This document shows positions 38,003 to 59,905 of a stretch of DNA of 64,000 bases, one piece after another. The position numbers and the translations under genes were made by a program. The notes under the pieces are model-generated. The model made no database searches and had not been told where the DNA came from. It saw only the letters and a program-made list of their open reading frames with translations. Each line of letters starts with the position of its first letter. Position 1 is the first letter of the stretch. Origin of the DNA: an uncultured virus (IMG/VR IMGVR_UViG_3300031269_000004) (taxonomy: Duplodnaviria > Heunggongvirae > Uroviricota > Caudoviricetes). Where the stretch lies: IMG/VR virus record IMGVR_UViG_3300031269_000004; one strand, written 5' to 3'.

Positions 38003-38371
38003 ATGAAATCATTAAAATCTTACATTAACGAAGCAGCAACAGTAAAGTTTGACCTTGATGTTATTGCACCTTTCGATGCTGCATCAGAAAAAAATGCACA
38101 ACGAAAGTTTAAAATTACGACAGAAATTACTATGTCTGAAGTAACTGGTACAATAAGCGACAGTGAAACAGACGTAACCGTTACATTTAGTAATGGCGAT
38201 ATGATAGAATATACAGCAGACAGAAACGTAACAATGTCAATAGAGACTGCAGTAGGTGAAACGGTTAAACTTGACAATAAGGCTGATGACTACATGGGTT
38301 CTACTGGTTCTGTTGTTGGTGATCTTGCTCTCGTCTATAAAGACTGGAAAGCAGGAAAAATTAGAGCATAA
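38003..38371 (+). CDS. Leader-tagged putative internal head protein
   Basis: MKSLKSYINEA leader; late-type motif upstream. Confidence 0.65.
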   Translation: MKSLKSYINEAATVKFDLDVIAPFDAASEKNAQRKFKITTEITMSEVTGTISDSETDVTVTFSNGDMIEYTADRNVTMSIETAVGETVKLDNKADDYMGSTGSVVGDLALVYKDWKAGKIRA

Positions 38372-38416
38372 TACAAACGCATAAATAAGAATAGTAATAT
38401 ATTTTAATAATAAGAC

Positions 38417-38869
38417 ATGAAATCACTAAGCACACACATCACAGAATCGTTTGTTAACGAGTCTGTGATGTGTGTGCTCGACTTAAATATTGTAGTTGAT
38501 CAGCAAATTAACAATATTAATCGTGTTATTGCTGACCTATCTACTAAAAAATCAAAAGAAGAAGACATCAAGTCTTTAAACGTCGACGTAGACAAACTGC
38601 AAGCAGTTAAAAAAAATAGGAAAGCAGTCGATGCTAATAATTCGGTGGTCAAATATGTTAATAGTAGACAGGATGTCTTTAAATCGTTATCATTTAAATT
38701 GTCAACCGCAGCAAACGGTAACCCTGCTTTATATCTAAAATTTAAGTCATCCAGAATGTCTGATGATGAGATTGAAACAATAAAAGATGAGATGACAGCA
38801 GTTAAAATAGATAAATCTAAAATGCAATGGTCTGCAAAGACAGGAACTCTTAGTATAGATTTAACCTAA
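38417..38869 (+). CDS. Leader-tagged putative internal head protein
   Basis: MKSLSTHITESFVNES leader. Confidence 0.7.
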   Translation: MKSLSTHITESFVNESVMCVLDLNIVVDQQINNINRVIADLSTKKSKEEDIKSLNVDVDKLQAVKKNRKAVDANNSVVKYVNSRQDVFKSLSFKLSTAANGNPALYLKFKSSRMSDDEIETIKDEMTAVKIDKSKMQWSAKTGTLSIDLT

Positions 38870-38880
38870 AACTTTACAAT

Positions 38881-40143
38881 ATGAAGGCATTAAGTAAACA
38901 TCTTACTGAATCTCTTGTCGCAGAAGGTCAATGGTCATCATACTATGATGACCATGAGCCAGAAGGAAAACTGGCAGCATATGTCTATGACGCAAGTGTT
39001 GGGTTCATTGACCCGGCTGCACTAAATTCTTTACTAAAAAAGTACCCAAATCAAAAAAAGATGCTTGCTTTCAGAGGTCTATTTTTTAGGGATATTGAAA
39101 GTTACAAAGGATTTGTTGCTGACATCAAAAGTAACAAAATAGACCTGTCAGGCTATACTAGCTGGACTCGATCTGTCGACACTGCACAACAGTTTGCCTT
39201 AACATCACCAACAAATAACATTATGCTGCTTGGTCGTGAATTTTTTAAGTCTGAAGATCAAAGAAGAAAAGTAAAAGACTATACGCAAGGATATGGTGTT
39301 ATCATTGAAACGGTTATTAGGCGAGAACAGGCAATAGACGTTAGTCTAGTGCCACACGTTAGTCAAGAAGACGAGCTTATACTGCCAGCTGGTAACTATG
39401 TTGTTAAGATTTTAAAAACGTTTAAGCCACACAGACAAGGTGTTAAAGATATTGTAGACCTAAACGAATATGTCATGAAACAGCGAAAGATAAAAAGTGG
39501 TCTTGGTCAACAAATGGACTACTCAATGCTAGAACATATTTTAGCTAATTATGAAGAGCAATTGAATGACGATTCTAGAAAACACCTATTTCAAATGTTT
39601 TCTGGTGGCATGACAAGTGCAAGTTGGGTGATTAAAACGGGCACAATGGACAGTTATGACGCAATAACTAAAGCAGGTCAATTTTTAGAACCAGAAAGAG
39701 ATGATAAGTATTCAAGTGAATATGGTACAGACTCATTGCTTAAAGATAAAAAGCAAGTTAAGGCTATACTATTTGCTAAAGGTTTTAATAGAAATCTTTT
39801 GGCGTATTTGCATCTATTTACTGATGCAGACCAAGAAAAAGTTAAACAGGCAATTGATCAATTAGGGGGCAGTCTCGTTCAAGAATTTGAAATGCTAAAC
39901 TTATCAACCGAACAAGACTACTTTTTTCGAGTTGATGGATTAGAAATGATGTCTAAGTTTATGGACACTAAATTAGCAAGCAAAATTGGTCGACTTTTAA
40001 ATATTAAAGTTGGTGAATACTACAAAGAATTAAATAGCAAGGCGTCAGTCGATAAAATAAATAGCCTTATTGGTAAAGAACAAGCTGTTGCAATTGATAG
40101 CATGGTTAACAACATGAAAAAACTGTTTAAAAACTTAAACTAA
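38881..40143 (+). CDS. Leader-tagged ADP-ribosyltransferase (R-S-E type, Alt-like)
   Basis: MKALSKHLTESLVAE leader; AFRGL, YTSWT and QEDELILPAG motifs. Confidence 0.7.
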   Translation: MKALSKHLTESLVAEGQWSSYYDDHEPEGKLAAYVYDASVGFIDPAALNSLLKKYPNQKKMLAFRGLFFRDIESYKGFVADIKSNKIDLSGYTSWTRSVDTAQQFALTSPTNNIMLLGREFFKSEDQRRKVKDYTQGYGVIIETVIRREQAIDVSLVPHVSQEDELILPAGNYVVKILKTFKPHRQGVKDIVDLNEYVMKQRKIKSGLGQQMDYSMLEHILANYEEQLNDDSRKHLFQMFSGGMTSASWVIKTGTMDSYDAITKAGQFLEPERDDKYSSEYGTDSLLKDKKQVKAILFAKGFNRNLLAYLHLFTDADQEKVKQAIDQLGGSLVQEFEMLNLSTEQDYFFRVDGLEMMSKFMDTKLASKIGRLLNIKVGEYYKELNSKASVDKINSLIGKEQAVAIDSMVNNMKKLFKNLN

Positions 40144-40207
40144 AAACATTTCTTTTTTGACACTAGACTTGAAAGTTTAACACTTTAACTAGTCCAGTGT
40201 CATTTAT

Positions 40208-40229
40208 TTGTTATATATTTATATAACAA
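40208..40229 (+). promoter_or_regulatory. Palindromic putative early-promoter element, copy 2
   Basis: TTGTTATATATTTATATAACAA. Confidence 0.75.
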
Positions 40230-40248
40230 TAAAAAACAAATAGAAATT

Positions 40249-40482
40249 ATGAGAGGATATGAAGACTTTAAATTTGAAATGAGTAATGCAGAGGCTAACG
40301 GTATCATCGATATAGATGATTTAACGGGAATTAGAGTACAAGACACATCAACAAATGAAATAATTGATGTTAGGATAAAAGATTCTTTTAAGAAAGAACA
40401 AATATTGCCAATTTTGATGCAGTACACTTTTATAGTGTTTTACGATAAATACGGTAACGGTCATGCAAAAATCACACTATAA
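40249..40482 (+). CDS. Hypothetical protein
   Basis: 77-aa ORF after the palindromic element. Confidence 0.6.
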   Translation: MRGYEDFKFEMSNAEANGIIDIDDLTGIRVQDTSTNEIIDVRIKDSFKKEQILPILMQYTFIVFYDKYGNGHAKITL

Positions 40483-40492
40483 TAAAGCAATT

Positions 40493-41071
40493 ATGAAACC
40501 AATCGAATTTATCAAGCGTTACGGGTTAGACAAGGGCACTAACTTTGACAGGTCTGCATTTAAAGAAGACCTAACATCAGAATTCATTGCATTCTTAGAA
40601 CTAAACAAGGCCAAGGATAACATTAAAGGTTTTGACAACTCAGTTAAAGTTATCAAAATGAAATTCGATGCAATTAACAACAAAACTCTCGGTGACATTA
40701 GTTCTTTTTGGGGTTTCTTTTTTGCAGCAGTTATTGTACCTTTACGAGAACAGCTTTGTCCAGCAGTGACTAAAAGGAGGCAAGACGCAAAGGCAGAAAG
40801 ACAAAAGCAATACGAAGATAGGAAAAAATTCAACGATGAATACTATGGTGACAGTTGGTCTAACTTAAGTATGGCATTTATGTCAGTACTGGTTACGCCA
40901 ACAAGTTCTTTTGTCCAACTTGGTCTTACTATTGATGCAACGTTACAAGATGTTAAGTCAACATACAGAAAGTTGTCAATGAAGCATCATCCAGATTGTG
41001 GAGGCAAACAGGCAATGTTTATACAAATAACTGAGGCAAAAAACAAATGCATTAAGTACTTAAGCAAGTAA
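40493..41071 (+). CDS. J-domain (DnaJ-like) protein
   Basis: C-terminal VKSTYRKLSMKHHPDCGG...FIQITEAK; ATG 40493 is the likely start. Confidence 0.85.
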   Translation: MKPIEFIKRYGLDKGTNFDRSAFKEDLTSEFIAFLELNKAKDNIKGFDNSVKVIKMKFDAINNKTLGDISSFWGFFFAAVIVPLREQLCPAVTKRRQDAKAERQKQYEDRKKFNDEYYGDSWSNLSMAFMSVLVTPTSSFVQLGLTIDATLQDVKSTYRKLSMKHHPDCGGKQAMFIQITEAKNKCIKYLSK

Positions 41072-41145
41072 CAACTTCTTTAAAATTTATGCAAAGTAAC
41101 AACTTCTTTAAAATTTATGCAAAGTAACAACTTCTTGAAAATTTA
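41066..41145 (+). repeat. 28-bp tandem repeat (about 2.8 copies) upstream of an early element
   Basis: AAGTAACAACTTCTTTAAAATTTATGCA at 41066, 41094 and (partial) 41122. Confidence 0.85.
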
Positions 41146-41173
41146 ACACTTTAAGTTGTCACGTAACAACTAA

Positions 41174-41195
41174 TTGTTATATATTTATATGACAA
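41174..41195 (+). promoter_or_regulatory. Palindromic putative early-promoter element, copy 3
   Basis: TTGTTATATATTTATATGACAA (one substitution). Confidence 0.75.
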
Positions 41196-41213
41196 CAAAA
41201 AGTAAACAATATT

Positions 41214-41741
41214 ATGCAAGTACTATATTTTCACGGTCTAAACAGTGGACCTCAGTCACCTAAATTTTTAGCAATACAAAAGCAATGGCCTCAGGCAAAA
41301 TGTTTTTATTGGACACCAACAGAAAAGCAACTAAGTCAAAGAATTAAAACTTTAGCAGTTGAAATGTCAACGTCTACTAAAGATGTATTGATTATTGGTG
41401 ACTCTGCTGGTTCAAACCTCGCTTTACAATTTAGAACTGAAATAACAAAGGCAAACTCATGGTGTAAGTTAATAATAATTGCACCAATTTTTAATACAAA
41501 ACAGCTTATTGACTCTTCTATTCTACCCAAAAACATAATTGATCAAATTGTCACAGTTGCAACATTAAATGATGCTATGCTATTGCTGCCAAGAGAGGAT
41601 GAAATATTAGACTATTCAGAAATACCAGGTCAAGTATTACGGTCAACTGAAGTAAAAAGAATACCAGGAGGCCATGCAGTACTCGGTTTTAGCCGCTATA
41701 TTAAAGACATGGTACTGTTTAGTAATACAATAGCTGTTTAG
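41214..41741 (+). CDS. YqiA/UPF0227-like alpha/beta hydrolase
   Basis: YFHGLNS, nucleophile elbow GDSAG, DEIL, GGH. Confidence 0.8.
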   Translation: MQVLYFHGLNSGPQSPKFLAIQKQWPQAKCFYWTPTEKQLSQRIKTLAVEMSTSTKDVLIIGDSAGSNLALQFRTEITKANSWCKLIIIAPIFNTKQLIDSSILPKNIIDQIVTVATLNDAMLLLPREDEILDYSEIPGQVLRSTEVKRIPGGHAVLGFSRYIKDMVLFSNTIAV

Positions 41742-41864
41742 TAATACAATAGCTGTTAGTAATACAATAGCTGTTAGTAATACAATAGCTGTTTAGTAAT
41801 ACAATAGCTGTTAGTAATACAATAGCTGTTAGTAATACAATAGCTGTTTAGTAATACAATAGCT
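41716..41864 (+). repeat. Tandem array of eight 18/19-bp units
   Basis: AGTAATACAATAGCT starts at 41721, 41740, 41758, 41776, 41795, 41813, 41831 and 41850. Confidence 0.95.
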
Positions 41865-41904
41865 TTTAATTACAACCTATTGATATATAATCTAAAAAGA
41901 AAAA

Positions 41905-42498
41905 ATGAAATCACTAAGAGTTAGACTTAACGAATCATTAGTTAATGAATCTGTTCAAAATTTATTAGCTGGTGATCTAGATAAAAAGACAGCAATGGTT
42001 GACCAAGTTTGGCAATTGCTTAAAGATGCATATGCCAGTCAAGGTGGCATAAAAGGTTCTGGTTTTGCGTCTAAACAAGACATGTTACGTATTCCATTTT
42101 GGAAACTTGACATTGTAGACGGTAAAGTACTTGCTGTGATTTTGTACAAATTTAAGCAAGAATCCCCTAACGGTGTCACATTTAGAAAAATGGCAGCAGG
42201 TGGAATACTAAGAGACCCTGAAACTAAAGCAATGGCAAAAAAGAAATTTTCGAATATGATTAAAGACGACTTTAAACGTAGTATTATGGAAGTTTCTGGT
42301 GGCATGCTTGATTTTTTACGTAAAGGTTTTCCTCAGGAATTTAAGCAATATAGATTAACTGTTAAAGAAGCTCAAGCTATACTGACCAGTAGGGAACTAA
42401 CTGCACATGATGTGTATACTTATAGTAGAATTTTAGGTGGAGCTGGCAAAGAAGTCCACAAGAAAATGATGTTTGGCACAATACAACCAAAAAGATAG
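41905..42498 (+). CDS. Leader-tagged putative internal head protein
   Basis: MKSLRVRLNESLVNES leader; late-type motif at 41883; own terminator near 42568-42593. Confidence 0.65.
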   Translation: MKSLRVRLNESLVNESVQNLLAGDLDKKTAMVDQVWQLLKDAYASQGGIKGSGFASKQDMLRIPFWKLDIVDGKVLAVILYKFKQESPNGVTFRKMAAGGILRDPETKAMAKKKFSNMIKDDFKRSIMEVSGGMLDFLRKGFPQEFKQYRLTVKEAQAILTSRELTAHDVYTYSRILGGAGKEVHKKMMFGTIQPKR

Positions 42499-42662
42499 AT
42501 AGCGTATAGGCATCGTTAAAAGAATTGTAGTTACGCCATAGCTACAGTATTTGTTTTTGTTAAAATAAAGGGTTGATTCGAAATCAGCCCTTTATTGATG
42601 TTAACAACTTACAAAAAATGTTAACAACTACACCATATAAAGTTGTCAAGTTATGAATAAAA

Positions 42663-42684
42663 TTGTTATATTTATATATAACAA
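42663..42684 (+). promoter_or_regulatory. Palindromic putative early-promoter element, copy 4
   Basis: TTGTTATATATTTATATAACAA. Confidence 0.75.
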
Positions 42685-42696
42685 AAAATACATACA

Positions 42697-43062
42697 ATGG
42701 CATTACCGACTACGAAAAAACAAATGATGACACTGGCATCATTTGTAACGACTAAACTGTTTAGTTCTGATTTACTACGTGACTTAATAAACGACCAGCT
42801 AATTATTATTGACGATACATATGCAATAGATGGCTTGGCAAACGCTATAGCCTGTATACACTCAGGTCTTAGTCATCCACCAATTCACGTCATACAGGGT
42901 CAAGACCAGCTAAGACTAACAATTGTTACTGGTCAAACGGCATTACTTGCTGCATCACATGTTAACAATACCAACGTTACTGTAACCGTACTGTCAGCAA
43001 CTGCTACAGAAGAGGCACAGGCTCAATTTATAGAACTTGCAAAAACAGCAACCAATGGATAA
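42697..43062 (+). CDS. Hypothetical protein
   Basis: 121-aa ORF after the palindromic element. Confidence 0.6.
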   Translation: MALPTTKKQMMTLASFVTTKLFSSDLLRDLINDQLIIIDDTYAIDGLANAIACIHSGLSHPPIHVIQGQDQLRLTIVTGQTALLAASHVNNTNVTVTVLSATATEEAQAQFIELAKTATNG

Positions 43063-43336
43063 CTTGAAAGAACAAAGCAGTGCACAGTATAAGAATAACA
43101 TAGCAAAACGGTTCACTGCTGCAGTTAATAACAATAGACACTTTGTTGGTCTTAACAACTTTGACAAGGCCAACATATTTTTAGACATGATTGCAGTATT
43201 TGTGCCAGAGCAGCACTTAAAGGGTGAACAGTACATGTCAACATATTACGATGGTATCTTTATGGCACCACTAGGCACCACATCAGAAGCCAGAAAGTCA
43301 GAAATGCTAAGACAAGTGCGATCATGGTTAGATTAA
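43055..43336 (+). CDS. Hypothetical protein
   Basis: ATG 43055 overlaps the previous stop. Confidence 0.55.
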   Translation: MDNLKEQSSAQYKNNIAKRFTAAVNNNRHFVGLNNFDKANIFLDMIAVFVPEQHLKGEQYMSTYYDGIFMAPLGTTSEARKSEMLRQVRSWLD

Positions 43337-43584
43337 CTAAAGATATTAAAGCACAACTATTGAATGACATTGAGACTATATTTGATGAAAGTATTAGTAG
43401 GCAATAAATGAAAAAACTTAGAACTTGTGTATGAAACGAATTGAAATTAAGATAAAAATTAAAAAATGGCAAAGGTCATTTATAAGAGATAAATGGGGCA
43501 GTTTAACAAATTGTTATTGGAATAGCATGGCTAAAAAAGAAATAATTAAATTGCAAGGCTTAGAGGTCATTTAAAAGAAACAAC

Positions 43585-43851
43585 ATGAGGTTAATGCAAA
43601 ATTTTATAAATAACGAAACTGGTCAGATACACTACGAGCCTGTTAAATCAAACATATACAGTCTTATAGGGCGTTTTTTTGCTTGGACACGAATCCACTT
43701 TTGGTCTTTTTGCCCTGAATGTAATAGTGACGCACCAAAATTATATGATTGTAAGGTTTGTCAATGGGATACGAATTCCCCATTTAATGGGGCAAAAAAG
43801 AAAGAGTATTGGAACAACTGGAAATTGCAAGATTACTTAAATGACTTATAA
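43585..43851 (+). CDS. Small zinc-ribbon protein
   Basis: CPEC...CKVC. Confidence 0.55.
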   Translation: MRLMQNFINNETGQIHYEPVKSNIYSLIGRFFAWTRIHFWSFCPECNSDAPKLYDCKVCQWDTNSPFNGAKKKEYWNNWKLQDYLNDL

Positions 43852-43903
43852 CAACGGATAAACAGGACACAAGCAATTAACAAAAATAAATAAAAAAACT
43901 ATT

Positions 43904-44650
43904 ATGAATGAAATTCAACAAGAAATAATCGACAAAGTGGTCAAAGCACTAGACAGACACGTACATACTTTCCTAGTCAAAAATGGCACTAAAATAAAAA
44001 CAAAGCCATTTGGTGCCCTGTATACAGATGTAGCAAAGGCACTAGGTTTGGATATGTCAGAAACCGCTGAACATAACAGTACTATGATGCCTGTATATCC
44101 TATGCGGCTAGATGACTTTACACGTAACAGACTTGCAACAGCAGACAATCACCTTGTCGTTGATGTCAACTACATGTACCCTACGATATTTAGGCACATG
44201 TTTATCAACAAATTATTAGAAACAAACAGACCAAATTTTGACAAAATGTATATTTGGCTACTAGACAACATACAAATACTAAAGGTCCAAGAAAACGCTG
44301 GAGCATACTATGTAGCAAGATACATACTCAACTCTTTATATGGTGTTATTGCTGCAGCATCGTATATAATTGGCACAGACATGCCACTTCGTGTAAACAG
44401 TAAACAAACTTCTGCTATGAAACAATGTATGGAGGACATATCATCATTAGTACTATACAAACCATACACCATAGCAGTAGACATCGACATTATGTGGCTA
44501 AAAGACACAGCAGAAGCACATATAATGCTAAAAGAGCTACAGGATAAATACGGCTTTACAATTGCATCAAAAGTAGTTGCAGACAAAAATGTAGACTTTA
44601 GACCTAGCAAAAGCACAAATAGAGCATACGAAAAATTCATAAAAGGCTAA
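43904..44650 (+). CDS. Minimal family-B DNA polymerase-like protein (palm and fingers only)
   Basis: Motif A VVDVNYMYPTI, motif B RYILNSLYG, motif C AVDIDIMW within 248 aa. Confidence 0.65.
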   Translation: MNEIQQEIIDKVVKALDRHVHTFLVKNGTKIKTKPFGALYTDVAKALGLDMSETAEHNSTMMPVYPMRLDDFTRNRLATADNHLVVDVNYMYPTIFRHMFINKLLETNRPNFDKMYIWLLDNIQILKVQENAGAYYVARYILNSLYGVIAAASYIIGTDMPLRVNSKQTSAMKQCMEDISSLVLYKPYTIAVDIDIMWLKDTAEAHIMLKELQDKYGFTIASKVVADKNVDFRPSKSTNRAYEKFIKG

Positions 44651-44662
44651 AGACAAAACATT

Positions 44663-44854
44663 GTGACAACATACGTTAGAGATATTTACAAAGGTGGCCG
44701 ACGAAACGATGAATTTCTAAAAGCAATTAAAGATGCTGATGGGGACAAGAAACCAGGTTTCTTCGCTTCAGATTTAGAAAAACACTTATTTGCAGGCGTA
44801 TATTATGGATGGTTAGTTAACAAATACGGCAATGATTGGGCACAAAATCTCTAG
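44663..44854 (+). CDS. Hypothetical protein
   Basis: 63-aa ORF with GTG start. Confidence 0.5.
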   Translation: MTTYVRDIYKGGRRNDEFLKAIKDADGDKKPGFFASDLEKHLFAGVYYGWLVNKYGNDWAQNL

Positions 44855-44902
44855 CACCCCGAATTAGCAACTGACTTAATTAACAAGACAAGTAACAAAC
44901 AA

Positions 44903-45334
44903 ATGAAGACTCAAAGGATTATTTTTAGCATGGAAACATTACCTAGCTTGCAAGACACAAATATTATCGTACCAACAAAAGGTGTTGGCAAAGGCATGCC
45001 TCACTTTAGGGAATACTATGGCAGTGCACAAAAGGACATGAACGATGAATATCATGACTTGTTTACATTATCATCAGAAGAAATTTTGCCTGGTGACGTA
45101 TTCTATTGTCTAAAGGCTAAAAAGATTAAAATACGTGCAATAGATCACGAAGTCACTAAATGGCACAATGCTACAAGTCTTTACGATAGAAAAGTTATTG
45201 GTACAACAAGCAAGGTCATACATAGCCTAGTCAGTTGCCATAGTGACATTAAATTACTGACAAAAGGGCAAGAATTAATGTATTGTCAAAACGAAGACAT
45301 ATATGAAATACTAGGCATACAAAAAACTTTATGA
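44903..45334 (+). CDS. Hypothetical protein
   Basis: 143-aa ORF. Confidence 0.6.
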   Translation: MKTQRIIFSMETLPSLQDTNIIVPTKGVGKGMPHFREYYGSAQKDMNDEYHDLFTLSSEEILPGDVFYCLKAKKIKIRAIDHEVTKWHNATSLYDRKVIGTTSKVIHSLVSCHSDIKLLTKGQELMYCQNEDIYEILGIQKTL

Positions 45335-45442
45335 AAGACAATTAAGTATGAGTAATTAAATGTAACAACTTCTTGAAATTTTATGCAAAGCAACAATTTT
45401 CTTTTGAAAATTTAACACTTTAAGTTGTCATATAACCACTAA

Positions 45443-45463
45443 TTGTTATATATTTATATAACA
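45443..45463 (+). promoter_or_regulatory. Palindromic putative early-promoter element, copy 5
   Basis: TTGTTATATATTTATATAACA. Confidence 0.75.
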
Positions 45464-45485
45464 CCAATAAATAAATACAACTATT

Positions 45486-45845
45486 ATGAGTACAAGTCAA
45501 AAGCACAACGTCATACAAATTGCAAAAACTGCACATGCTGCACATCGTGCATTTTGTATTAATGTTGAACAGTCAAAACAACCAACTTGGCCGGAAACGA
45601 CACAAAGCCACAAGTTAACAGTTTACAATTCTATTAAGAAAATACTTTCTGGTGAACTACGGTCACCACAAGAGGCTCACGAAAACTTTGTTAATATGAA
45701 ATTAGAAGGCGGTTGGGTTTGGGCTCCGGTTCACAATGTAGAACTAAAACACAATCCTAGATTAACAGCATTTGACAAGTTAACACCAGCAAACATATTT
45801 AAAGACATCATGTTTTTCGATATCGTTATGTCATTCAAAAAATAA
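45486..45845 (+). CDS. RyR-domain protein
   Basis: HENF...GWVWAPVHNVELKHNPRLTAFDKL...KD pattern. Confidence 0.75.
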   Translation: MSTSQKHNVIQIAKTAHAAHRAFCINVEQSKQPTWPETTQSHKLTVYNSIKKILSGELRSPQEAHENFVNMKLEGGWVWAPVHNVELKHNPRLTAFDKLTPANIFKDIMFFDIVMSFKK

Positions 45846-45855
45846 GGAAAAACTC

Positions 45856-46611
45856 ATGAAAATATCAATTAAATTTTTCGGTGTGTCATACAATACAGGA
45901 AAGAGTAAGACCTTTAAGCATGAGTTTGAAACTGGTGTAGAGTTTAGTGACATAACAAAAAAGGTAAGTGGCAAGCTCAAGGAAATACTTCTAAAATACA
46001 ACCCTAAACTAACATCATTACCTGACGACTATACGATTGACGTTTTTGAACAAGCAATGGACTGGGTTGATGAACGTGATAATACTGACATTATTCATCA
46101 GTATGAATTACAAAGCATAACTAACTACAAAGTAGTGTCCGTCGGTTTAGTAAAACAAAAATCAGCAGAAAAAAAGTTTGTTCAGGAACACGGAGACAAA
46201 AGAATAGCTAAAGGTTCTATATATCACATACAGGGTCACGACATAAAGGCTGAACAAGTATTAGTTTTTCTTGACTCAGCAATATCTGACCCGCAACTAA
46301 AACTTGACATGCTTGCTGTATACAAAAAAATGTATAAGTCTATCAAGTCGTTAGGTTACAAAAAGCAAGTTAGTATAGTCTTGGATTCTACAGCTGTTGC
46401 ATATACTGCCGCTACAGCTACTCTGGCTAAACTTTCTGACTACAACAAAGAACTTAATGCATTACCATCTTTTGTATGGAAAGCAGCAATATACCAGGAC
46501 GAAGTCGCAACTTCTGTTTTTGTTAATCAATTTAAAAGTGGCAAGCTTAGTGAAAAAGGAAAATTGATACTAAGTAGTTACGAAGACCGATATAAAAAAT
46601 TACAAGGATAA
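45856..46611 (+). CDS. Hypothetical protein
   Basis: 251-aa ORF. Confidence 0.65.
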   Translation: MKISIKFFGVSYNTGKSKTFKHEFETGVEFSDITKKVSGKLKEILLKYNPKLTSLPDDYTIDVFEQAMDWVDERDNTDIIHQYELQSITNYKVVSVGLVKQKSAEKKFVQEHGDKRIAKGSIYHIQGHDIKAEQVLVFLDSAISDPQLKLDMLAVYKKMYKSIKSLGYKKQVSIVLDSTAVAYTAATATLAKLSDYNKELNALPSFVWKAAIYQDEVATSVFVNQFKSGKLSEKGKLILSSYEDRYKKLQG

Positions 46612-46637
46612 TGAAAAATAAAACGCAAACATAAAAG

Positions 46638-47486
46638 ATGCCAGAAATAGCAGAAGTTAGATTAGTTTCAGATTACATTAATGAGGTTAGTAGAGGTCAA
46701 CGATGTAGTGGCATTACTAAAAGCCAAGTACATAAAGGTCTTGATCTTGAGCCTTGGTACAATGACAATTGCAGTTGGGGTATAAGTAAGCTTAGCTCAG
46801 AGGCAAGAGGCAAAGAACTGCATGTTATTATGTCACACCCACAAGACACCAATTTGTCATTAAGGGTTCGTTTTAATCTTGGTATGTCTGGTCACTTTGT
46901 ACTGCATGACACTACGACTAGACCAAAGCATGCACACATAACATTTAGTCTCAACTATGACGATCAGCTTAGCTTTGTTGATCCTCGGCGATTTGGTACA
47001 TGGAAACCTATTCAAACATGGCATCCAAACCGAGGCCCTGATGTTATTACTAGTCCAGCACTAGTCAAGCAACATATGGAAAAACTGCTAATGCATAAAG
47101 ACCGTTTAAAATCTGCACCAGCAATGCTATTGAATCAGTTTTGGTTTAACGGCATTGGTAACTATCTTAGGAGTGACCTCCTTTATATACTTGATGTCAG
47201 CCCAACTTGGACTATTGAGCAGGTTATTGCACATCATGGTGTTGATCATTTTGTTGATGTTATGGCTGGTCTATGCATTCAAATGTATCAGGTTGGCGGT
47301 GGTCGACTTCAGTCATTTAAAACTCCAGGTCTCGAGTATCAAAAGTTGACAAAGTTTTATTGTTATAGTCAACGAGGTATGTGCCATGTTTATGACCCAT
47401 CTGGTCGCAGGCTTTGGTTCCATCCTAAATGGAAAGAACAGGTTGCAATGGCTTGGCCAACCAAGACAATTGGCGAAAAGGCATAA
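46638..47486 (+). CDS. Fpg/Nei-family DNA glycosylase (NEIL1-like, zincless finger)
   Basis: N-terminal MPE..EV, RGKEL, LGMSG, FVDPRRFG, H2TH LLNQ.WFNGIGNYL, C-terminal GRRLWF without a C4 zinc finger. Confidence 0.9.
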   Translation: MPEIAEVRLVSDYINEVSRGQRCSGITKSQVHKGLDLEPWYNDNCSWGISKLSSEARGKELHVIMSHPQDTNLSLRVRFNLGMSGHFVLHDTTTRPKHAHITFSLNYDDQLSFVDPRRFGTWKPIQTWHPNRGPDVITSPALVKQHMEKLLMHKDRLKSAPAMLLNQFWFNGIGNYLRSDLLYILDVSPTWTIEQVIAHHGVDHFVDVMAGLCIQMYQVGGGRLQSFKTPGLEYQKLTKFYCYSQRGMCHVYDPSGRRLWFHPKWKEQVAMAWPTKTIGEKA

Positions 47487-47536
47487 ACTGCAGCAATAGT
47501 GTTATATTTAAAATACGGTAAATTTATCAAAAGATT

Positions 47537-51511: not shown

Positions 51512-51521
51512 ATAAAACAAT

Positions 51522-51833
51522 ATGAATTACACGAAAGAGCAACAAGACTTATGGCATAATGGTGATATAGATGAAATTCTAGCCTATTGCGCAAAGAGTA
51601 ATGGACACAAAAAGATTACAATTTCAATCCTATTAGAAGATAGTGATAACAAGGAAAGAGAAGAGACAAGATGTCAACTGCTAACGAGTACAATTAGTGC
51701 TAAGCCTCCTGGTGTGGACCTGACAAGTAGCCTTTTACGGTCAATGTTTGAGCAAATGTTTATTAGGTCGACGGACATTGCTAATCAAGGCCTGACGCCG
51801 TTAGAGGTTAATGCAACACATACCGAGGCATAA
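51522..51833 (+). CDS. Hypothetical protein
   Basis: 103-aa ORF. Confidence 0.55.
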   Translation: MNYTKEQQDLWHNGDIDEILAYCAKSNGHKKITISILLEDSDNKEREETRCQLLTSTISAKPPGVDLTSSLLRSMFEQMFIRSTDIANQGLTPLEVNATHTEA

Positions 51834-51900
51834 TGAGCTAGCATAAAAACTTTACGTTATTTCATTCTTGTATACATATAATCTAAACTAAGCATAAAGG

Positions 51901-52953
51901 ATGAAAAGTATAACTTCATACATTAACGAAAAATTGGCTACACAAGATGTTGATGCTACCCGTTTTCCGAACGGCGGCAAAACTGATCGTGACTTTTTCA
52001 GCAAGGGTCAACGAGATGGTAACAAGGTCGATGACATTGTTAAGACAGTAAAAGTTAAAATATCAGCAAAAGAGCTTCTTGCTTCACAAGATGCTGTTTA
52101 CTTAGGTAAATCTTTAAGCATGGCGATTGGTGGTGTTTCTGGTGGTGATCTTGGCAGTATTGTTAGTAAAGAAAATCGTATACTAGACGGTCACCATAGA
52201 TGGGCTGCTACGATGTTTAATAATCCTAATGCAATACTAGATGTTAGCAAAGCTAACATGACAATTGGTGATCTTATACCAGTACTTCGTGCAGCTGGTG
52301 ACAATTATGGTAACAAAAGAGGCAACGATCAGGTTTCTGGTGACCTTAACGTATTTAAGGCGACAGTTTCAGATATTGAAGACAGCATTTACAAAGGTAA
52401 AGGCATGGATGTTGCATTTTACAACCAACAAAAAGCAATTGATTGGTACGAAAGCATTGGTGCCAGTACTATATCAAAAAGACTTTCTATGCTACAAGCT
52501 GCAAAGCCTCCAGTTGGTGCACCGGCCCGAAAGGACATGCCAAAAATAGAACCAGAACAAGTTGATAAAGTTACTAAGTCAATGTCCAATGGTGATATTG
52601 ATATTAGAGACCCTTATGTTGCTGAATCAAAAAATAACAAAAAGAAAAAGAAAACTATAAAATCATTAAGCACACATATCACCGAATCATTAGTTAACGA
52701 GGCTAGTGAAATGGTATCAGGTTGGCCTAGATATTACAACAAAAAGTCATCTCAAACGTTTGTATTGACAAAGTTACAAAATGATCGAGCTACGTATATG
52801 GCATACTTTCGTGGTTATGAAACAGATGGCCCTGTAATATTTAACAGTGTACAAGAGCTACATAAATTTGAAGCAGGCACAAACGTCTCAAGACAACAGG
52901 CAGAAACATATCGATTTAGTAAAGAAATAGCATTACCTGAAGCAATAAAATAA
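51901..52953 (+). CDS. Leader-tagged ParB/Srx-like domain protein fused to a second leader-tagged module
   Basis: MKSITSYINE leader; ILDGHHRWAA ParB-like motif; internal IKSLSTHITESLVNEA at 52657. Confidence 0.7.
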   Translation: MKSITSYINEKLATQDVDATRFPNGGKTDRDFFSKGQRDGNKVDDIVKTVKVKISAKELLASQDAVYLGKSLSMAIGGVSGGDLGSIVSKENRILDGHHRWAATMFNNPNAILDVSKANMTIGDLIPVLRAAGDNYGNKRGNDQVSGDLNVFKATVSDIEDSIYKGKGMDVAFYNQQKAIDWYESIGASTISKRLSMLQAAKPPVGAPARKDMPKIEPEQVDKVTKSMSNGDIDIRDPYVAESKNNKKKKKTIKSLSTHITESLVNEASEMVSGWPRYYNKKSSQTFVLTKLQNDRATYMAYFRGYETDGPVIFNSVQELHKFEAGTNVSRQQAETYRFSKEIALPEAIK

Positions 52954-52970
52954 CACACAAAAAAACAACT

Positions 52971-53420
52971 ATGAAATCATTAAGCGCACACATTACAGAA
53001 TCATTTAGTTTCAGCAAGGTTACGGCTCCAAACTATGAAAAATGGTTATCAGATAACCCGGCTGGTCTTGACAATAAAAACGACCCTAAATATATGAATG
53101 CTGGTCGCTGGTTATCACACACTTTAGAAATTGTTTGGCGAACTGACGAAATACAGGCTGCTGCAGATTTATATAAATTAGCTATTGTTTCTTTTCCAGA
53201 GTTTAAACAAATTAGCGCTTCGGATCGTAAGCACTTCGACACAATAGTCGGTTGTATAATGACGCAAGAGACTGATGATTCTGACCTAGCAGGCTACATG
53301 AAAGCATTGCCACAACAAGCAAAGACTTACATTAAAGATCAGCAAGGTTCACCAGTAGGTGATGACAGTATGTTTGACTACGGTTTAGAATGGTTTTGTA
53401 TGTCCGTACTTAACATGTAA
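52971..53420 (+). CDS. Leader-tagged putative internal head protein
   Basis: MKSLSAHITESF leader. Confidence 0.7.
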   Translation: MKSLSAHITESFSFSKVTAPNYEKWLSDNPAGLDNKNDPKYMNAGRWLSHTLEIVWRTDEIQAAADLYKLAIVSFPEFKQISASDRKHFDTIVGCIMTQETDDSDLAGYMKALPQQAKTYIKDQQGSPVGDDSMFDYGLEWFCMSVLNM

Positions 53421-53438
53421 TAACACACAAAAACAACT

Positions 53439-53795
53439 ATGAAATCATTAAGCACACATATTACAGAATCATTCGGCGGTTTGCTAAACGAAATGAAAGA
53501 CGATAATTTTACAGAAGCACAGAACGGTAATCCTACACATAATTTTAAAGTATACAAAGAGATCATACAAGTTTATCCACATATGCAAAGTATTATAGAA
53601 GATAGTTTTAAAGTAGGTAGCCCAGACTATAGTATACATGGTATATGGGATGCAGGTAAGCAAATCGTTTTTTATTTTGATAGATCATGTGGTATTAGTT
53701 TTAAAAGACTAGGTAATGACTTGGCAAAGCATAACGTAAGTTTTCAATTACCTGGTAACACTGATTATAACTTTAACATATCAATAGATAAATGA
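53439..53795 (+). CDS. Leader-tagged putative internal head protein
   Basis: MKSLSTHITESFGGLLNE leader. Confidence 0.7.
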   Translation: MKSLSTHITESFGGLLNEMKDDNFTEAQNGNPTHNFKVYKEIIQVYPHMQSIIEDSFKVGSPDYSIHGIWDAGKQIVFYFDRSCGISFKRLGNDLAKHNVSFQLPGNTDYNFNISIDK

Positions 53796-53812
53796 CACAA
53801 ATAAAAACAACT

Positions 53813-54136
53813 ATGAAATCATTAAGCACACATATTACAGAATCATTTGTCAACGAGTCAAATAGCATGTTTGCTGTTATGTTAACAGGAGGCTCTATAG
53901 GCGACAAGCCAAGACCGTCAAACGCTAGGGAATTTAAGGGCATGCCGGTACCAAAAGATGAACAGCTGTTCAGTAAGGAAGACGCCACGGCGAAAGCAAA
54001 AAGAATGAATAAATCAATGTCGCCCGGAGAACGTAAGCACTATCGTTTAAAATACGTTGTTGTACCAGTTAACGGCAACCTGTTTGAATCTGATAGCAGT
54101 AGGACTGTTGTTCTAAGTTCTGGTTTTAAGGAATAA
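53813..54136 (+). CDS. Leader-tagged putative internal head protein
   Basis: MKSLSTHITESFVNES leader; start reassigned to 53813. Confidence 0.7.
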   Translation: MKSLSTHITESFVNESNSMFAVMLTGGSIGDKPRPSNAREFKGMPVPKDEQLFSKEDATAKAKRMNKSMSPGERKHYRLKYVVVPVNGNLFESDSSRTVVLSSGFKE

Positions 54137-54154
54137 AAAACAAAATGAAAAAAT

Positions 54155-54754
54155 ATGAAATCATTAAGCACCCACATTACAGAATCATTCGTCAACGAAG
54201 CTGTCCAAGATGTCAAGTCAGCAGCCAAAAGTGGATTTGATTTAGTCATTACTAAAGACTTAAGAGAAGGCACAGACTTTAAAGAAATCTCAGAAGAAGA
54301 CTTCGACAGATATGATGAAGTAGTCGTTAGCCCTAATCCATTTGGTGTTGTACCTACTATCATTGAAAAAGGAACAGTAGTTAAAAATGTAAAACCGCAA
54401 GGCAATTATATAATGGGTGAATTGTTTGCTGTCTCTAGTAGAAATGGTCGAAATAAATTCGTTGGTAATATTACGTTGACGTTAGATTCTATATCGATAC
54501 TTAAAATACCTGAACCAGTTAGAGGTATTAGCGCTTTAGATATTAGCAAGGCCTTGTATGACGCTGTAGTGTATACAAGTTTTATCGTAACAGACGGTGA
54601 CAACACTATTGGATTTGCTCTAGGTCGTGGTTACGATGACGAAATGGCAGATAAGATCATTGCGGCCCTATCTCAGTTTGGGAATAAGTTAAACATACAA
54701 ATAGGCGCGAGTGCCGGCGGTGATAAGGGCTCCGAATGTGTCTACTATAGCTAA
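54155..54754 (+). CDS. Leader-tagged putative internal head protein
   Basis: MKSLSTHITESFVNEA leader. Confidence 0.7.
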   Translation: MKSLSTHITESFVNEAVQDVKSAAKSGFDLVITKDLREGTDFKEISEEDFDRYDEVVVSPNPFGVVPTIIEKGTVVKNVKPQGNYIMGELFAVSSRNGRNKFVGNITLTLDSISILKIPEPVRGISALDISKALYDAVVYTSFIVTDGDNTIGFALGRGYDDEMADKIIAALSQFGNKLNIQIGASAGGDKGSECVYYS

Positions 54755-54805
54755 ACAAAAAAGAACAAAAAAGAACAAAAAATAACAAAAAAAAAAAAGA
54801 AAACT

Positions 54806-55210
54806 ATGAAATCATTAAGCACACACATTACAGAATCGTTTCAAATTGATGAAGCAGGGCAAGAGATTATCAATCTCTATGTCTATACTGAAATGATTAA
54901 CATTATGCGTCCAGGTCAAACTAAACCGACAGGACGTAAACCTGTTAGCATTGCTATTGTACCGATCACGTCTAATAACAAACGTAATCTTGCCAGTTTT
55001 GTTAAGCAAGACAAAAAAGGTGGTGCAGAATCCATAATTATTAAAGATTTGGACAAGGCAGGACAAGAATTAGCAGACTTTGCTAAACGATTCCCTAATC
55101 TCAAAATTGATCCACGAGATACTTTGCAACTAGATAATACTACGCTATATAGCATCGACGATAATGTCATACAAGACATAAAGTCAACTATTGATAAAGT
55201 CAACTATTGA
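54806..55210 (+). CDS. Leader-tagged putative internal head protein
   Basis: MKSLSTHITESFQIDEA leader. Confidence 0.7.
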   Translation: MKSLSTHITESFQIDEAGQEIINLYVYTEMINIMRPGQTKPTGRKPVSIAIVPITSNNKRNLASFVKQDKKGGAESIIIKDLDKAGQELADFAKRFPNLKIDPRDTLQLDNTTLYSIDDNVIQDIKSTIDKVNY

Positions 55211-55241
55211 TAAACACACGAAATTACTAGGCAAAACAACT

Positions 55242-55718
55242 ATGAAATCATTAAGTAAACACCTTACAGAGACCTTGGCGACAACCGTTAACGAGTCTGA
55301 CATTCTTGGCAATCGTTTTACAATAATGCCACATGAATGGCGTACATTTGTTAAAATAGCCAAGGCAACAAACAGGTCTTTGAGAACAGTTACCGACAGT
55401 GGCCTTGATATTTTATTAAGTATTAAGACAAAACAGGCGGTTGCAAAATGGGACGAAGAGACACTTGAACTGTGGACTGATATGTCAAAGTCTGACTTTC
55501 AGGCAATAATATCAGGCAGGGCTAAACAGTCAGGGCGTTGGTTGCAAGACCCGGTAACAGAAGCGGTAACAGAAGGCATAGGTCAAGGTGACACAGTGAC
55601 TGTAAAGATGGGTAAATGGTCAGGCCAAAGTGGCACAGTTACACTAATATTAAAAGACAGTTACATGCTTGATTTACAAGATGGCAATAGTGTAGAAGTC
55701 AAAAATTCAGAAATTTAA
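55242..55718 (+). CDS. Leader-tagged putative internal head protein with C-terminal KOW/SH3-like module
   Basis: MKSLSKHLTETLATTVNES leader (start 55242); VTEAVTEG then GDTVTVKMGKWSGQSGTV. Confidence 0.65.
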   Translation: MKSLSKHLTETLATTVNESDILGNRFTIMPHEWRTFVKIAKATNRSLRTVTDSGLDILLSIKTKQAVAKWDEETLELWTDMSKSDFQAIISGRAKQSGRWLQDPVTEAVTEGIGQGDTVTVKMGKWSGQSGTVTLILKDSYMLDLQDGNSVEVKNSEI

Positions 55719-55795
55719 GCAAATGCTGCAACGGTGCATATATTTTATGCATCGTTGTTTAATTTAATTATACAACTAAAAAAATTACACAATTT

Positions 55796-56032
55796 ATGCC
55801 TAAATCAAAGCACCGTAAAGGATTCAAAGCGAAAGCAAACAAACTTAAATCTACTCAGCTTGCACAAAAAAAGCAAGACGCACATAACCTCAAACGTCGA
55901 GTTAACAAGATTATGCTTGAAGAGGAACAACGAAAGCAGCTTGCGAAAAAGGCTCAACGAGACACCCAGCTTAGTGTGCTGAATGATGCAGAAGACAACA
56001 AGACTATGACGTCTAAGTTGTTAGAACCATAA
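55796..56032 (+). CDS. Small basic protein
   Basis: MPKSKHRK start, after TGTTTAATT. Confidence 0.6.
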   Translation: MPKSKHRKGFKAKANKLKSTQLAQKKQDAHNLKRRVNKIMLEEEQRKQLAKKAQRDTQLSVLNDAEDNKTMTSKLLEP

Positions 56033-57897: not shown

Positions 57898-57932
57898 TGC
57901 CAACATGAAAACAGTAACATAACTTAAAACCC

Positions 57933-58121
57933 ATGCCAAAAAAAATCACAAAAAGAGGTGAACCTAAATGTAAAATGCAAGACTTACCTTTTTGGGATCG
58001 AAAAATTAATCCAATTACAGGTTGGCCTACTGCACAAGTGACTAGACTAGACGATGAAAGTAATGAAATGAAGTATTGGCAACAAAGTATAAGCATTGCA
58101 GGAGATAAGAATAGAAAATAA
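57933..58121 (+). CDS. Hypothetical protein
   Basis: 62-aa ORF. Confidence 0.5.
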   Translation: MPKKITKRGEPKCKMQDLPFWDRKINPITGWPTAQVTRLDDESNEMKYWQQSISIAGDKNRK

Positions 58122-58184
58122 TCAAGCGTTTTTGTTAACAAGTTATTGAAAAGTTAACAAATTAAGGTGTCATTTATGCACTAA

Positions 58185-58206
58185 TTGTTATATATTTATA
58201 TAACAA
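58185..58206 (+). promoter_or_regulatory. Palindromic putative early-promoter element, copy 6
   Basis: TTGTTATATATTTATATAACAA. Confidence 0.75.
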
Positions 58207-58227
58207 TAAAAAACTAATACATCTATT

Positions 58228-58632
58228 ATGAACACGTCAATCTCAATATTATCCACCTGGGGCGAATTATTTAGCCAAAACGTTATCGATAACAACAAAA
58301 ACATTGATAATTTTGTTGGAACATTTAGCCATACTGGTACTACCGAAAAGTATTCAATGTATATGTTACATAGACTGTCAGAAATAGACCAAGAGTTAAC
58401 AGGTCACATTCAGTTACCTGAACATCAAATGATATTCACTGTACAAACAAAAAGATCTTCAATTTTTGGAACATCTGCTTTTGTTATAATAGACTTTAAA
58501 TCAAAACGAGTATTTTTTACCACAAATGGAGAAAATAACCCAATTAGTTTTAGTAAAGTTGGTAACAGAATACGCACCATATCAATAATGTGGCTCTATG
58601 AAAATATGATTAACACAAAAGCAATCGCATAA
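58228..58632 (+). CDS. Hypothetical protein
   Basis: 134-aa ORF after the palindromic element. Confidence 0.6.
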   Translation: MNTSISILSTWGELFSQNVIDNNKNIDNFVGTFSHTGTTEKYSMYMLHRLSEIDQELTGHIQLPEHQMIFTVQTKRSSIFGTSAFVIIDFKSKRVFFTTNGENNPISFSKVGNRIRTISIMWLYENMINTKAIA

Positions 58633-58964
58633 TGGCACTAAAAGATAGACTAGGTAAATGTTACATGTTGGCATATCAACATGTAACAGAAAAACAAGAT
58701 TGGACATTGTGTCACGGCTTTATTACAGATAATATTTTTGGCACTGGCAATACAATAGATCATGCATGGTGTGAACACAATGCAACTGGTAAACTATACG
58801 ATCCAGTACTACAAAAGCATTACAGTAAGGAAATGTTTATTGCAACATTTTCACCAGACACAACAGTAAGATATACTAAACAGGAAGTACTACAACATGC
58901 GTTTAAATTTAAACATTATGGACCGTGGCACGAAATTGACAATTCTAAAATAAAATTTAACTAA
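58632..58964 (+). CDS. Small transglutaminase/papain-like fold protein
   Basis: GKCY ... HAWCE ... YDP putative Cys-His-Asp triad. Confidence 0.55.
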   Translation: MALKDRLGKCYMLAYQHVTEKQDWTLCHGFITDNIFGTGNTIDHAWCEHNATGKLYDPVLQKHYSKEMFIATFSPDTTVRYTKQEVLQHAFKFKHYGPWHEIDNSKIKFN

Positions 58965-58976
58965 ACAAACAACACT

Positions 58977-59300
58977 ATGAATTCACTTAGCAAACACATA
59001 AACGAATCTTTCAGACCGCAAAATAACATTAAGATTGACAGCTTAAGTTTAGCAAACGGTCTGAAAAAGAGTGACTTTGGTGACTTAGTCACTAGCATAC
59101 AAGACCTAAAGCTAGGAGACAGCATAATTATAGTAAACAGATCAGACAACGAATGGCGAGATCAGGTTGAATTTTTAGGTGATTCTGGTAATGCTGTCCA
59201 ATTATTGTTTACTTATGGTGGCAATAATGAAAAGGTGAAAATAAGATACAGTTGGTTCTTAGAAGACATTAGTCTTGGTTTCGTATACAAAAAGAAATAA
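58977..59300 (+). CDS. Leader-tagged putative internal head protein (paralogue of 59597)
   Basis: MNSLSKHINESF leader. Confidence 0.7.
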   Translation: MNSLSKHINESFRPQNNIKIDSLSLANGLKKSDFGDLVTSIQDLKLGDSIIIVNRSDNEWRDQVEFLGDSGNAVQLLFTYGGNNEKVKIRYSWFLEDISLGFVYKKK

Positions 59301-59596
59301 TGCGTCAAATTATGCTTGACTATTTTAACGAACTTATTTTTAAGTTTGCTAACAAACAATGGCGGGTTGACTTCCCTGACTATACCTTGCTAGACAAACC
59401 TGATCATATTAATAGCGATATGATTAATGGCAGCTTTGGTGCAATAGCAGTTAAAACCTAAACATAATGGAACACGTAATAAATTGCAATCACGACTTTC
59501 CGCTTAGAGTTAAAAACTTTTTATTTTGGCAGTGTCCTAACTGCAATGCAATAAAGTCTAGATTTTTTTGGTCAAAACATAAAAGAAAACAAAATA

Positions 59597-59905
59597 ATGA
59601 AGTCACTAAGCAGTCACATTAACGAATCATTTGAGGCCATCGATCTAGACGGAATGAGCATAGGCCCTGGCCTAACCAAGGGGCAATTTGGTCAACCTGT
59701 TACCAGTCATGTCCAGTTACAAATGGGTGATAAACTAATTGTTGTTGACAAGGGCGAATGGCGAAACAGCTTTGAATTTTTAGGCTACAGTGAAGGCATT
59801 ATTCAGTTTTTAGACTATCTTGGCACAAAGAAAGAAAAGATAACTATGGGGCTGTCAAAGTTTCAGTCTGCCATTGAGGCCGGCCACGTCAGGAGAGAGT
59901 TGTAA
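59597..59905 (+). CDS. Leader-tagged putative internal head protein (paralogue of 58977)
   Basis: MKSLSSHINESF leader. Confidence 0.7.
   Translation: MKSLSSHINESFEAIDLDGMSIGPGLTKGQFGQPVTSHVQLQMGDKLIVVDKGEWRNSFEFLGYSEGIIQFLDYLGTKKEKITMGLSKFQSAIEAGHVRREL

Follow-up and report, generated by a model that had tools for sequence, protein, structure and literature searches.

Why would a phage place the same short N-terminal peptide on a series of otherwise unrelated proteins? The question is raised by a DNA stretch of 64,000 nucleotides from an uncultured member of the Caudoviricetes (IMG/VR record IMGVR_UViG_3300031269_000004), the whole of which we refer to herein as the window. Between positions 38,003 and 59,905, open reading frames (ORFs) of this window begin with a leader close to MKSLSTHITES(F/L)VNE, and a preliminary description, which counted about 13 such proteins, read the leader as a tag for loading proteins into the capsid and injecting them. 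In our assessment the leader is likely to be a capsid targeting sequence (CTS) of the T4 type, which would load about 30 otherwise unrelated proteins into the head, be cut by the head protease, and leave its cargo to be injected with the DNA. Those parts of the earlier reading that could be checked came out as it predicted, including an S77 protease, a shared cutting motif, a T4-like leader format, selection on the peptide and an ADP-ribosyltransferase-like cargo.

The leader heads about a sixth of the ORFs seen

The leader had been reported at 13 ORF starts and at one internal place, 52657. With a listing of the ORFs and a pattern search of the whole window in six frames, we verified every one of these 14 places and found no others; all lie on the + strand. 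The count of about 13 is right for the window, and only a lower bound for the phage, because the family reaches beyond the window. Exact-pattern scans recovered the same phage as several public viral contigs. One IMG/VR contig, identical to the window across 10,060 of 10,060 overlapping bases, contributes 18 kb upstream, a second contributes 18 kb downstream, and the end of a third is the first 127 bases of the upstream contig. Joined with the window, these contigs give 143,955 bases, roughly two thirds of the genome by CheckV's estimates (about 63%, if its figure of 19% for 43.8 kb is correct), on which there are at least 28 tagged ORFs, or about a sixth of the ORFs seen. The stretch is present in five DNA sequencing runs labelled salt lake metagenome, and no RNA run was listed for it. 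To judge by the relatives of the phage and by gene starts that lack a Shine-Dalgarno sequence, its host is probably one of the Bacteroidota. As the tail sheath encoded in the window (1005 amino acids (aa)) shares 49% identity with its counterpart in Tenacibaculum phage PTm1 (a jumbo myovirus of 225 kb), and the gene order is as in PTm1, we place the source phage among jumbo myoviruses related to PTm1. A megablast search with positions 38000-56000 found no DNA match in cultured phages.

A loose form of the leader, M-[KRN]-x-[LIVM]-x3-[ILV]-x-E heading an ORF of at least 50 residues, gave 28 ORF-head matches in a six-frame scan of the 144 kb, every one of them on the + strand. Chance is ruled out as the origin of the family because 25 of the 179 called genes start with this pattern versus 0.11 expected from its rate at non-initial positions (26 in 41,679). 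The remaining three of the 28 matches begin within longer called ORFs. Two looser candidates, MRKFTTKINES and MKPLSFFMNES (- strand), were left out of the leader count.

The 29 leader copies considered below all come from this phage, the contigs beyond the window included. Their consensus is M-K-S-L-S-x-H-[ILV]-[TN]-E-S-[FL], with [ILV] at position 8 and Glu at position 10 in 29/29 copies, Leu4 in 28/29, and Ser11 in 25/29 (Ser or Ala in 27/29); a second V-N-E follows the leader in 11 to 13 of them. Similarity starts at the ATG and conservation stops at codon 12 to 15. An all-against-all BLASTP comparison of 28 cargo proteins with the first 16 residues removed found only two related pairs at E <= 1e-3, 58977/59597 and one pair outside the window, which bears out for the window the claim that the bodies are unrelated save for a single pair of paralogues. 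Leader and body also occur in tandem as leader-body-leader-body fusions in three ORFs, that at 51901 in the window and two outside it.

The leader ends in a predicted prohead-protease site

The head module of this phage, 11 to 20 kb upstream of the window, comprises the portal gene, a gene for a 395-aa protein, two leader genes, and genes for proteins of 553 and 605 aa. The contig that is identical to the window over the overlap carries the gene for the 553-aa protein (L011:4819-6480), about 12.9 kb upstream of the window. Residues 29-139 of this protein match Pfam Peptidase_S77 (PF03420), the T4 gp21 family, with an E-value of 9.2e-10 and 38.8 bits (cutoff 27); S77 is its best Pfam match, and a weak match to S80 (E 0.002) falls below cutoff. 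BLASTP aligns the protease part with T4 gp21 over 115 aa at 28% identity (E 3e-9), and the aligned stretch includes GE-x-x-HP and SSR-x-x-G. Positions counted in this alignment show that the counterparts of gp21 His85 and Ser140, which we take to be catalytic residues, are identical in the 553-aa protein, and that the third catalytic residue falls outside the aligned stretch. The 605-aa protein matches Pfam Gp23 and is a gp23-type capsid protein.

The tetrapeptide in which the leader ends, [ILV]-[TN]-E-[SA], recurs in this module. Eight copies lie in a scaffold-like region of the 553-aa protein downstream of its protease part, and the capsid protein has ITE/S at residues 19-22, LTE/S at 45-48 and INE/S at 53-56, with no later copies (a slash marks the predicted cutting place). 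Across the 179 called proteins the motif occurs 63 times, versus 9.9 ± 3.1 (maximum 18) in 200 shuffles, an enrichment of about six-fold, and in 23 genes it begins at residues 5-13. The PTm1 capsid protein retains ITE/S and INE/S, followed by the same SYGSQGPEAVPGMG, and T4 gp23 has LTE/A at a near-equivalent place in the alignment. Because the same tetrapeptide recurs in the capsid propeptide and the scaffold, the leader would by every sequence sign terminate in the prohead-protease site of this lineage.

This leader format is close to that of T4, where the sequence record has internal proteins (IPs) II and III starting MKTYQEFIAE/A and IPI starting MKTFKEF...STITE/A. According to the available passages of one article, the first 10 residues of T4 IPIII are enough for head loading, and residues 4 and 7 of the T4 CTS serve targeting and residues 8 and 10 processing (PMC9026906).

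Two further features of the module touch on its protease. Protease and scaffold are fused in the single 553-aa gene here, and also in PTm1, whereas T4 genes 21 and 22 are separate; the first predicted cut in the 553-aa protein, VITE/S at residue 194, lies just past the protease domain. Between portal and protease, a protein (L021:2-1069) has a DGHHRH motif and a poly-Asp run. Its sequence LDE/TYGQQAPSAVPGIGAV...GSGD is similar to INE/SYGSQGPEAVPGMGPV...GSGD, where the mature capsid protein is predicted to start, and the protein may be a minor one associated with the shell and trimmed at the same type of site.

Tagged proteins include enzyme-like cargo

The proteins behind the leader have few known relatives: 26 of the 29 belong to no PHROG family, and DUF5824 is the single pass at Pfam cutoff. 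Many are small (74-200 aa), without family, and range in isoelectric point from 4.5 to 10. The DUF5824 match (E 1.3e-10) belongs to a 107-aa protein with a divergent leader, MKPLQELVFE/SLANE (L013:8153-8476), and the protein has a second match, to the C-terminal end of a PHROG that carries the annotation cytidyltransferase.

Three cargo proteins yielded more. For the product of 38881, five homologues were found, and R65 (in YRGLFF), S94 (in Y-[ST]-S-W) and Q162-E163-x-E165 are invariant in 6/6 sequences; by their position we take these to be the three catalytic motifs of the R-S-E ADP-ribosyltransferases. When the AlphaFold2 (AF2) model of this protein (mean predicted local distance difference test score (pLDDT) 67.5) was compared by VIA alignment, 50/50 rows were ADP-ribosyltransferases, with Z 6.3-8.0, values that under 8 can reflect merely a common structural arrangement, over 119-140 aligned residues in nearly all rows (90 in one row). 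Foldseek gave no match to the model in the Protein Data Bank (PDB) at E <= 1e-3 (all E-values >= 5e-3), the protein matched no Pfam family at E <= 0.01, and a profile of its family had no PDB sequence match at E <= 1. These results lend moderate support to an ADP-ribosyltransferase-like product. More distant homologues of this protein carry other leaders of similar length, ending LLE/N, IVE/D or LTE/D. On a 6.3-kb contig of another phage, the ORFs that flank a 38881 homologue (L050:2446-2841 and 4837-5172) start MFKLENILIE/V and MKLQNILNE/W, and that phage may have a leader family of its own.

For the first module of the 51901 polyprotein, 427 homologues with about 50% identity were found at E <= 1e-3, and D96-G97-H98-H99-R100 is invariant in 65/65 sequences. 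The AF2 model of this module has a pLDDT of 89, with ParB N-domains and sulfiredoxin as the best Foldseek rows, weak at E >= 0.02; the module has no match in Pfam, nor any in the PDB by Foldseek at E <= 1e-3. In 112 of the 119 homologues listed, [ILVMFY]-x-E stands directly N-terminal of the conserved domain, as the end of an N-terminal leader in 83 (28 of them in the exact T4 format) and in an internal linker behind another module in 29. At least four of the seven pattern misses show the motif by eye. Some homologues of this module are fused to CTP_transf_like domains.

The 41905 family comprises 227 representatives. Residues 5-18 include [ILVMFY]-x-E in 129/147 of the listed homologues that start with Met, versus 39/154 non-leader ORFs of this phage. 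Atlas structure rows point to GNAT clusters with a TM of about 0.5, and we treat a GNAT-like fold as a lead only. A tblastn search of 50,697 cultured-phage records found no match to the 51901 module and two records only for 41905, and a cluster look-up for eight homologues returned no informative names. Since cultured phages have almost no members of these two families, lineage-specific leaders ending in [ILV]-x-E appear from the sequences to be common in uncultured phages, as do the polyproteins that they join.

The same cargo bears on whether the tagged proteins might instead be prohead-core or scaffold-type components, targeted and cut, and afterwards either lost from the head by degradation or expulsion or retained in a structural role (DNA condensation or an inner body) rather than injected. 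Such a role would suit the many small, familyless cargos of widely differing isoelectric point and the two leader genes that immediately precede the protease gene; moreover, the prohead protease of T4 also cuts the core proteins gp67, gp68 and gp22, which for the most part do not stay in the head, according to the passages available (PMC9026906). However, 28 unrelated bodies fit scaffolding poorly, and they include enzyme-like proteins, one ADP-ribosyltransferase-like and one ParB/Srx-like with its invariant DGHHR. The T4 proteins with this leader format, the IPs and Alt, are ejected, as far as the same passages describe them (PMC9026906). We therefore regard core or scaffold components as an unlikely explanation of the family.

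Selection acts on the leader peptide

Whether the leader addresses the head at all can be asked of its sequence. It might direct proteins elsewhere, as a degron or as a signal for another phage compartment, the tail or export, its likeness to a protease site being incidental. The tie between leader and head is one of sequence, and most leader genes lie outside the head module. Against this, the leader has no hydrophobic stretch, its end is the very motif in which the proteome is enriched and which clusters in the capsid propeptide and scaffold, and homologues in other phages retain only the [ILV]-x-E end and the length. We consider such an address very unlikely.

The preliminary description had taken synonymous codon variation as a sign that the peptide is selected, and codon-family and substitution counts bear this out. 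In the 29 copies, Ser11 is encoded by TCN 19 times and by AGY six times, Ser5 is likewise conserved across these two codon families, and Leu4 is encoded by TTA 18 times and by CTA or CTT 10 times. Single-base codon differences are synonymous to non-synonymous in a ratio of 760:457 over codons 2-11, versus 112:563 over codons 21-30. Since synonymous differences dominate codons 2-11 and Ser11 spans two codon families, these counts show that selection acts on the leader peptide rather than on the DNA. That the leader is instead a DNA- or RNA-level element, for translation initiation, regulation or as a recombination junction homogenised by gene conversion, with no role for the peptide, is scarcely credible, for although the 5' flanks are only A-rich, with no other base conserved upstream of the ATG and no Shine-Dalgarno sequence, so that early codons might affect initiation, and although adjacent genes of the tandem array have up to 51 nt in common across the junction, the codon counts run the other way, in-frame internal copies lacking a start codon are retained, and homologues in other phages differ in both leader nucleotides and peptide yet keep the [ILV]-x-E end.

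Upstream motifs fit expression with the head genes

The 144 kb contain 28 copies of ATACATA[TA] on the + strand versus four on the - strand, and for 19 copies a gene start is no more than 80 nt away. The motif precedes the portal, protease-scaffold, sheath and other virion genes, as well as six leader genes, where it stands at -25 to -39; a close variant lies upstream of three further leader genes. It is a candidate late promoter, unlike T4's TATAAATA. An occurrence of ATACATAT at asm 22709 overlaps a start codon and was not counted as a promoter. Many leader genes without the motif closely trail another leader gene, for example in the runs 38003-38881 and 51901-55242. If the motif acts as its placement suggests, this arrangement fits co-expression of the leader genes with the head genes.

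A second element, the class A repeat, is an intergenic sequence of about 100 nt with the near-palindromic core TTGTTATATATTTATATAAC, which the + strand of the 144 kb carries 21 times. The copies mostly stop 34-76 nt short of the start of a non-structural gene, ligase among them, and none stands directly before a leader gene. We read the repeat as a probable early or middle promoter combined with an operator.

A proposed route for the tagged proteins

We propose that the leader genes would be transcribed together with the structural genes, and that the N-terminal part of the leader (Leu4, His7) would tether each precursor to the scaffolding core during prohead formation. After closure of the shell, the prohead protease would cleave after Glu10 and, in about 13/29 copies, again after the second [FL]-V-N-E. 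The same protease would cleave the capsid propeptide at its three sites, the last giving a propeptide of 55 residues, the scaffold at its eight sites, and the polyproteins at their internal leaders. The mature cargo would remain in the head with the DNA and enter the cell on infection, where enzymes such as the ADP-ribosyltransferase-like cargo might act on host targets. It is by analogy with T4 that we infer prohead loading, leader removal, ejection into the host and an anti-defence role, and the physical events from tethering onward are likewise put forward on that footing.

Several observations weigh against this route. The late-type motif lies upstream of nine leader genes only, 58977 and 59597 are downstream of a class A repeat and their expression may differ, and most leader genes sit among replication and nucleotide-metabolism genes, outside the head module. 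PTm1, the nearest cultured relative, has no N-terminal leader family when the first 10 residues of its 1,490 Met-started ORFs are clustered, and tblastn with all cargos found no homologue of any of them there; at most two of its ORFs are leader-like (MGLLDHVNE/A and MKLFETINE/SF). Because PTm1 has neither leader family nor cargo homologues, the leader expansion is specific to the present lineage. The scores behind the ADP-ribosyltransferase assignment are middling (Z <= 8.0, Foldseek E >= 5e-3, no Pfam match). Finally, sequence alone cannot tell targeting from mere cleavage, nor injected effectors from discarded core proteins.

Coordinates and neighbouring genes

Table 1. Leader ORFs and upstream elements in the window (positions are those of the window; a slash marks a predicted cutting place).
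Feature	Position	Strand	Basis and remarks
Leader ORF, 122 aa (MKSLKSYINE/A); opens a three-gene run	38003..38371	+	No Pfam or PHROG family; ATACATAA motif, promoter-like, 27 nt upstream
Leader ORF, 150 aa (MKSLSTHITE/SFVNE/S)	38417..38869	+	ORF listing, pattern search
Leader ORF, 420 aa; ADP-ribosyltransferase-like domain (about residues 18-185) and helical C-terminal part	38881..40143	+	Homologue motifs, AF2 model (moderate support)
Leader ORF, 197 aa (MKSLRVRLNE/SLVNE/S); GNAT-like fold a lead only	41905..42498	+	ORF listing, pattern search, structure rows
Polyprotein of two modules, 350 aa: a leader and a ParB/Srx-like module with DGHHR motif, then a second leader and a small module	51901..52953	+	ATACATAT motif 29 nt upstream
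Internal in-frame leader copy (IKSLSTHITE/SLVNE/A), ATA for ATG, behind a poly-Lys linker; predicted polyprotein cutting site	52657..52701	+	Pattern search
Leader ORF, 149 aa; first of six tandem cargo genes following 51901	52971..53420	+	ORF listing, pattern search
Leader ORF, 118 aa	53439..53795	+	ORF listing, pattern search
Leader ORF, 107 aa	53813..54136	+	ORF listing, pattern search
Leader ORF, 199 aa	54155..54754	+	ORF listing, pattern search
Leader ORF, 134 aa	54806..55210	+	ORF listing, pattern search
Leader ORF, 158 aa (MKSLSKHLTE/T; second site VNE/S at residue 16-19)	55242..55718	+	ORF listing, pattern search
Leader ORF, 107 aa (MNSLSKHINE/S); paralogue of 59597	58977..59300	+	No late-type motif upstream; class A repeat at 58185 lies upstream
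Leader ORF, 102 aa (MKSLSSHINE/S); paralogue of 58977, 38% identity	59597..59905	+	BLASTP
ATACATA[TA] copies (candidate late promoter)	1480, 8365, 13121, 20279, 23280, 37976, 51872		20-50 nt before virion genes and some leader genes
Class A repeat copies	37591-37688, 40169-40240, 45364-45463, 58146-58230, 60375-60446, further copies		
Class A repeat cores	37658, 40208, 41174, 42663, 45443, 58185, 60407, 61815		

Among the neighbouring genes, a 1324-aa ORF at window positions 47537-51511 encodes, in one protein, an Mre11-like phosphoesterase N-terminus followed by an SbcC/Rad50-like body (PHROG 35725, E 6.5e-202; PHROG 77). PTm1 has the same Mre11/SbcC-type fusion, annotated as metallo-phosphoesterase. 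T4 encodes its Mre11-like and Rad50-like proteins as separate genes.

Significance and comparison with known systems

The T4 CTS is the textbook portable capsid address, known on few proteins in close T4 relatives, whereas hundreds of uncultured phages bear such tags on two of the present cargo families alone. New host-takeover and anti-defence functions are likeliest to be found among packaged and injected proteins, which sequence does not otherwise reveal. Were virion proteomics to confirm the proposed route, packaging and injection of phage proteins could be predicted from a ten-residue tag and a protease motif, and the capsid could act as a processing chamber for cargo polyproteins. A broader proposition, which we advance tentatively, is that the tag marks a large injected proteome of 30 or more enzymes and small proteins, some of them polyproteins cut inside the capsid, that would form a kit for takeover and counter-defence in the first minute of infection, and that, as the homologue families suggest, lineage-specific [ILV]-x-E tags are general in uncultured phages with T4-type heads. 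In that case the tag might be used as a sequence handle for listing injected effectors from metagenomes alone.

Short addresses that load unrelated proteins into an HK97-fold shell are found elsewhere, among them those of the P1 Dar antirestriction proteins and the cargo-loading peptides of encapsulins. These differ from the present leader in that the shells are other ones and encapsulin tags are C-terminal, and we know of no gp21-type trimming of a shared N-terminal tag in either. In the literature on capsid targeting sequences, judged by titles and passages, we found no expanded tag family outside T4 relatives.

Closer in kind are the ejection proteins of the phiKZ-like phage SPN3US, where, according to the passages available, many head-internal proteins are trimmed at x-x-E by a protease distantly related to gp21 and are ejected (PMC5694885). 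Their propeptides are mostly over 100 residues long and, as far as those passages go, share no single short tag (PMC5694885). The proteases differ as well, that of the present phage matching S77 best and S80 only weakly.

The internal-protein sets of the T-even phages come closer still. In the parts of the literature available to us, they are described as diverse defence proteins with only the CTS in common (PMC3012670), and, as would be the case here, a conserved CTS is carried by diverse, fast-changing injected proteins that counter host defence (PMC3012670, PMC9026906). The T-even sets are small and confined to close T4 relatives, whereas here about a sixth of the ORFs seen are tagged and two widespread cargo families are almost exclusive to uncultured phages, with 0 and 2 matching records among 50,697 from cultured phages. 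It has been suggested, in the passages available, that the CTS may be a general route by which T4-like phages load varied proteins into their capsids, and T4 Alt is described there as a packaged ADP-ribosyltransferase from which gp21 removes a short propeptide (PMC9026906).

The T4 CTS itself is the nearest counterpart. Both leaders are 10 residues long, begin M-K, end [IL]-x-E before a small residue and are conserved at the same positions; in both phages there is a protease of the gp21 family and the same cutting motif in the propeptide of a gp23-type capsid protein; and in both the bodies are otherwise unrelated, with an ADP-ribosyltransferase, or here an ADP-ribosyltransferase-like protein, among the cargo. 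The present phage differs in belonging to a PTm1-like jumbo myovirus lineage, in having at least 28 tagged ORFs on 144 kb versus a handful in T4, in its frequent second site five residues on, in the fusion of protease and scaffold in one gene, and in its two-module polyproteins linked by internal leaders; Pfam and PHROG searches gave no family that ties any cargo to the T4 IPs. The system is of a kind already known from the T4 CTS and internal proteins, and what appears to be new is an unusually large member of that kind in a distant lineage of jumbo phages.

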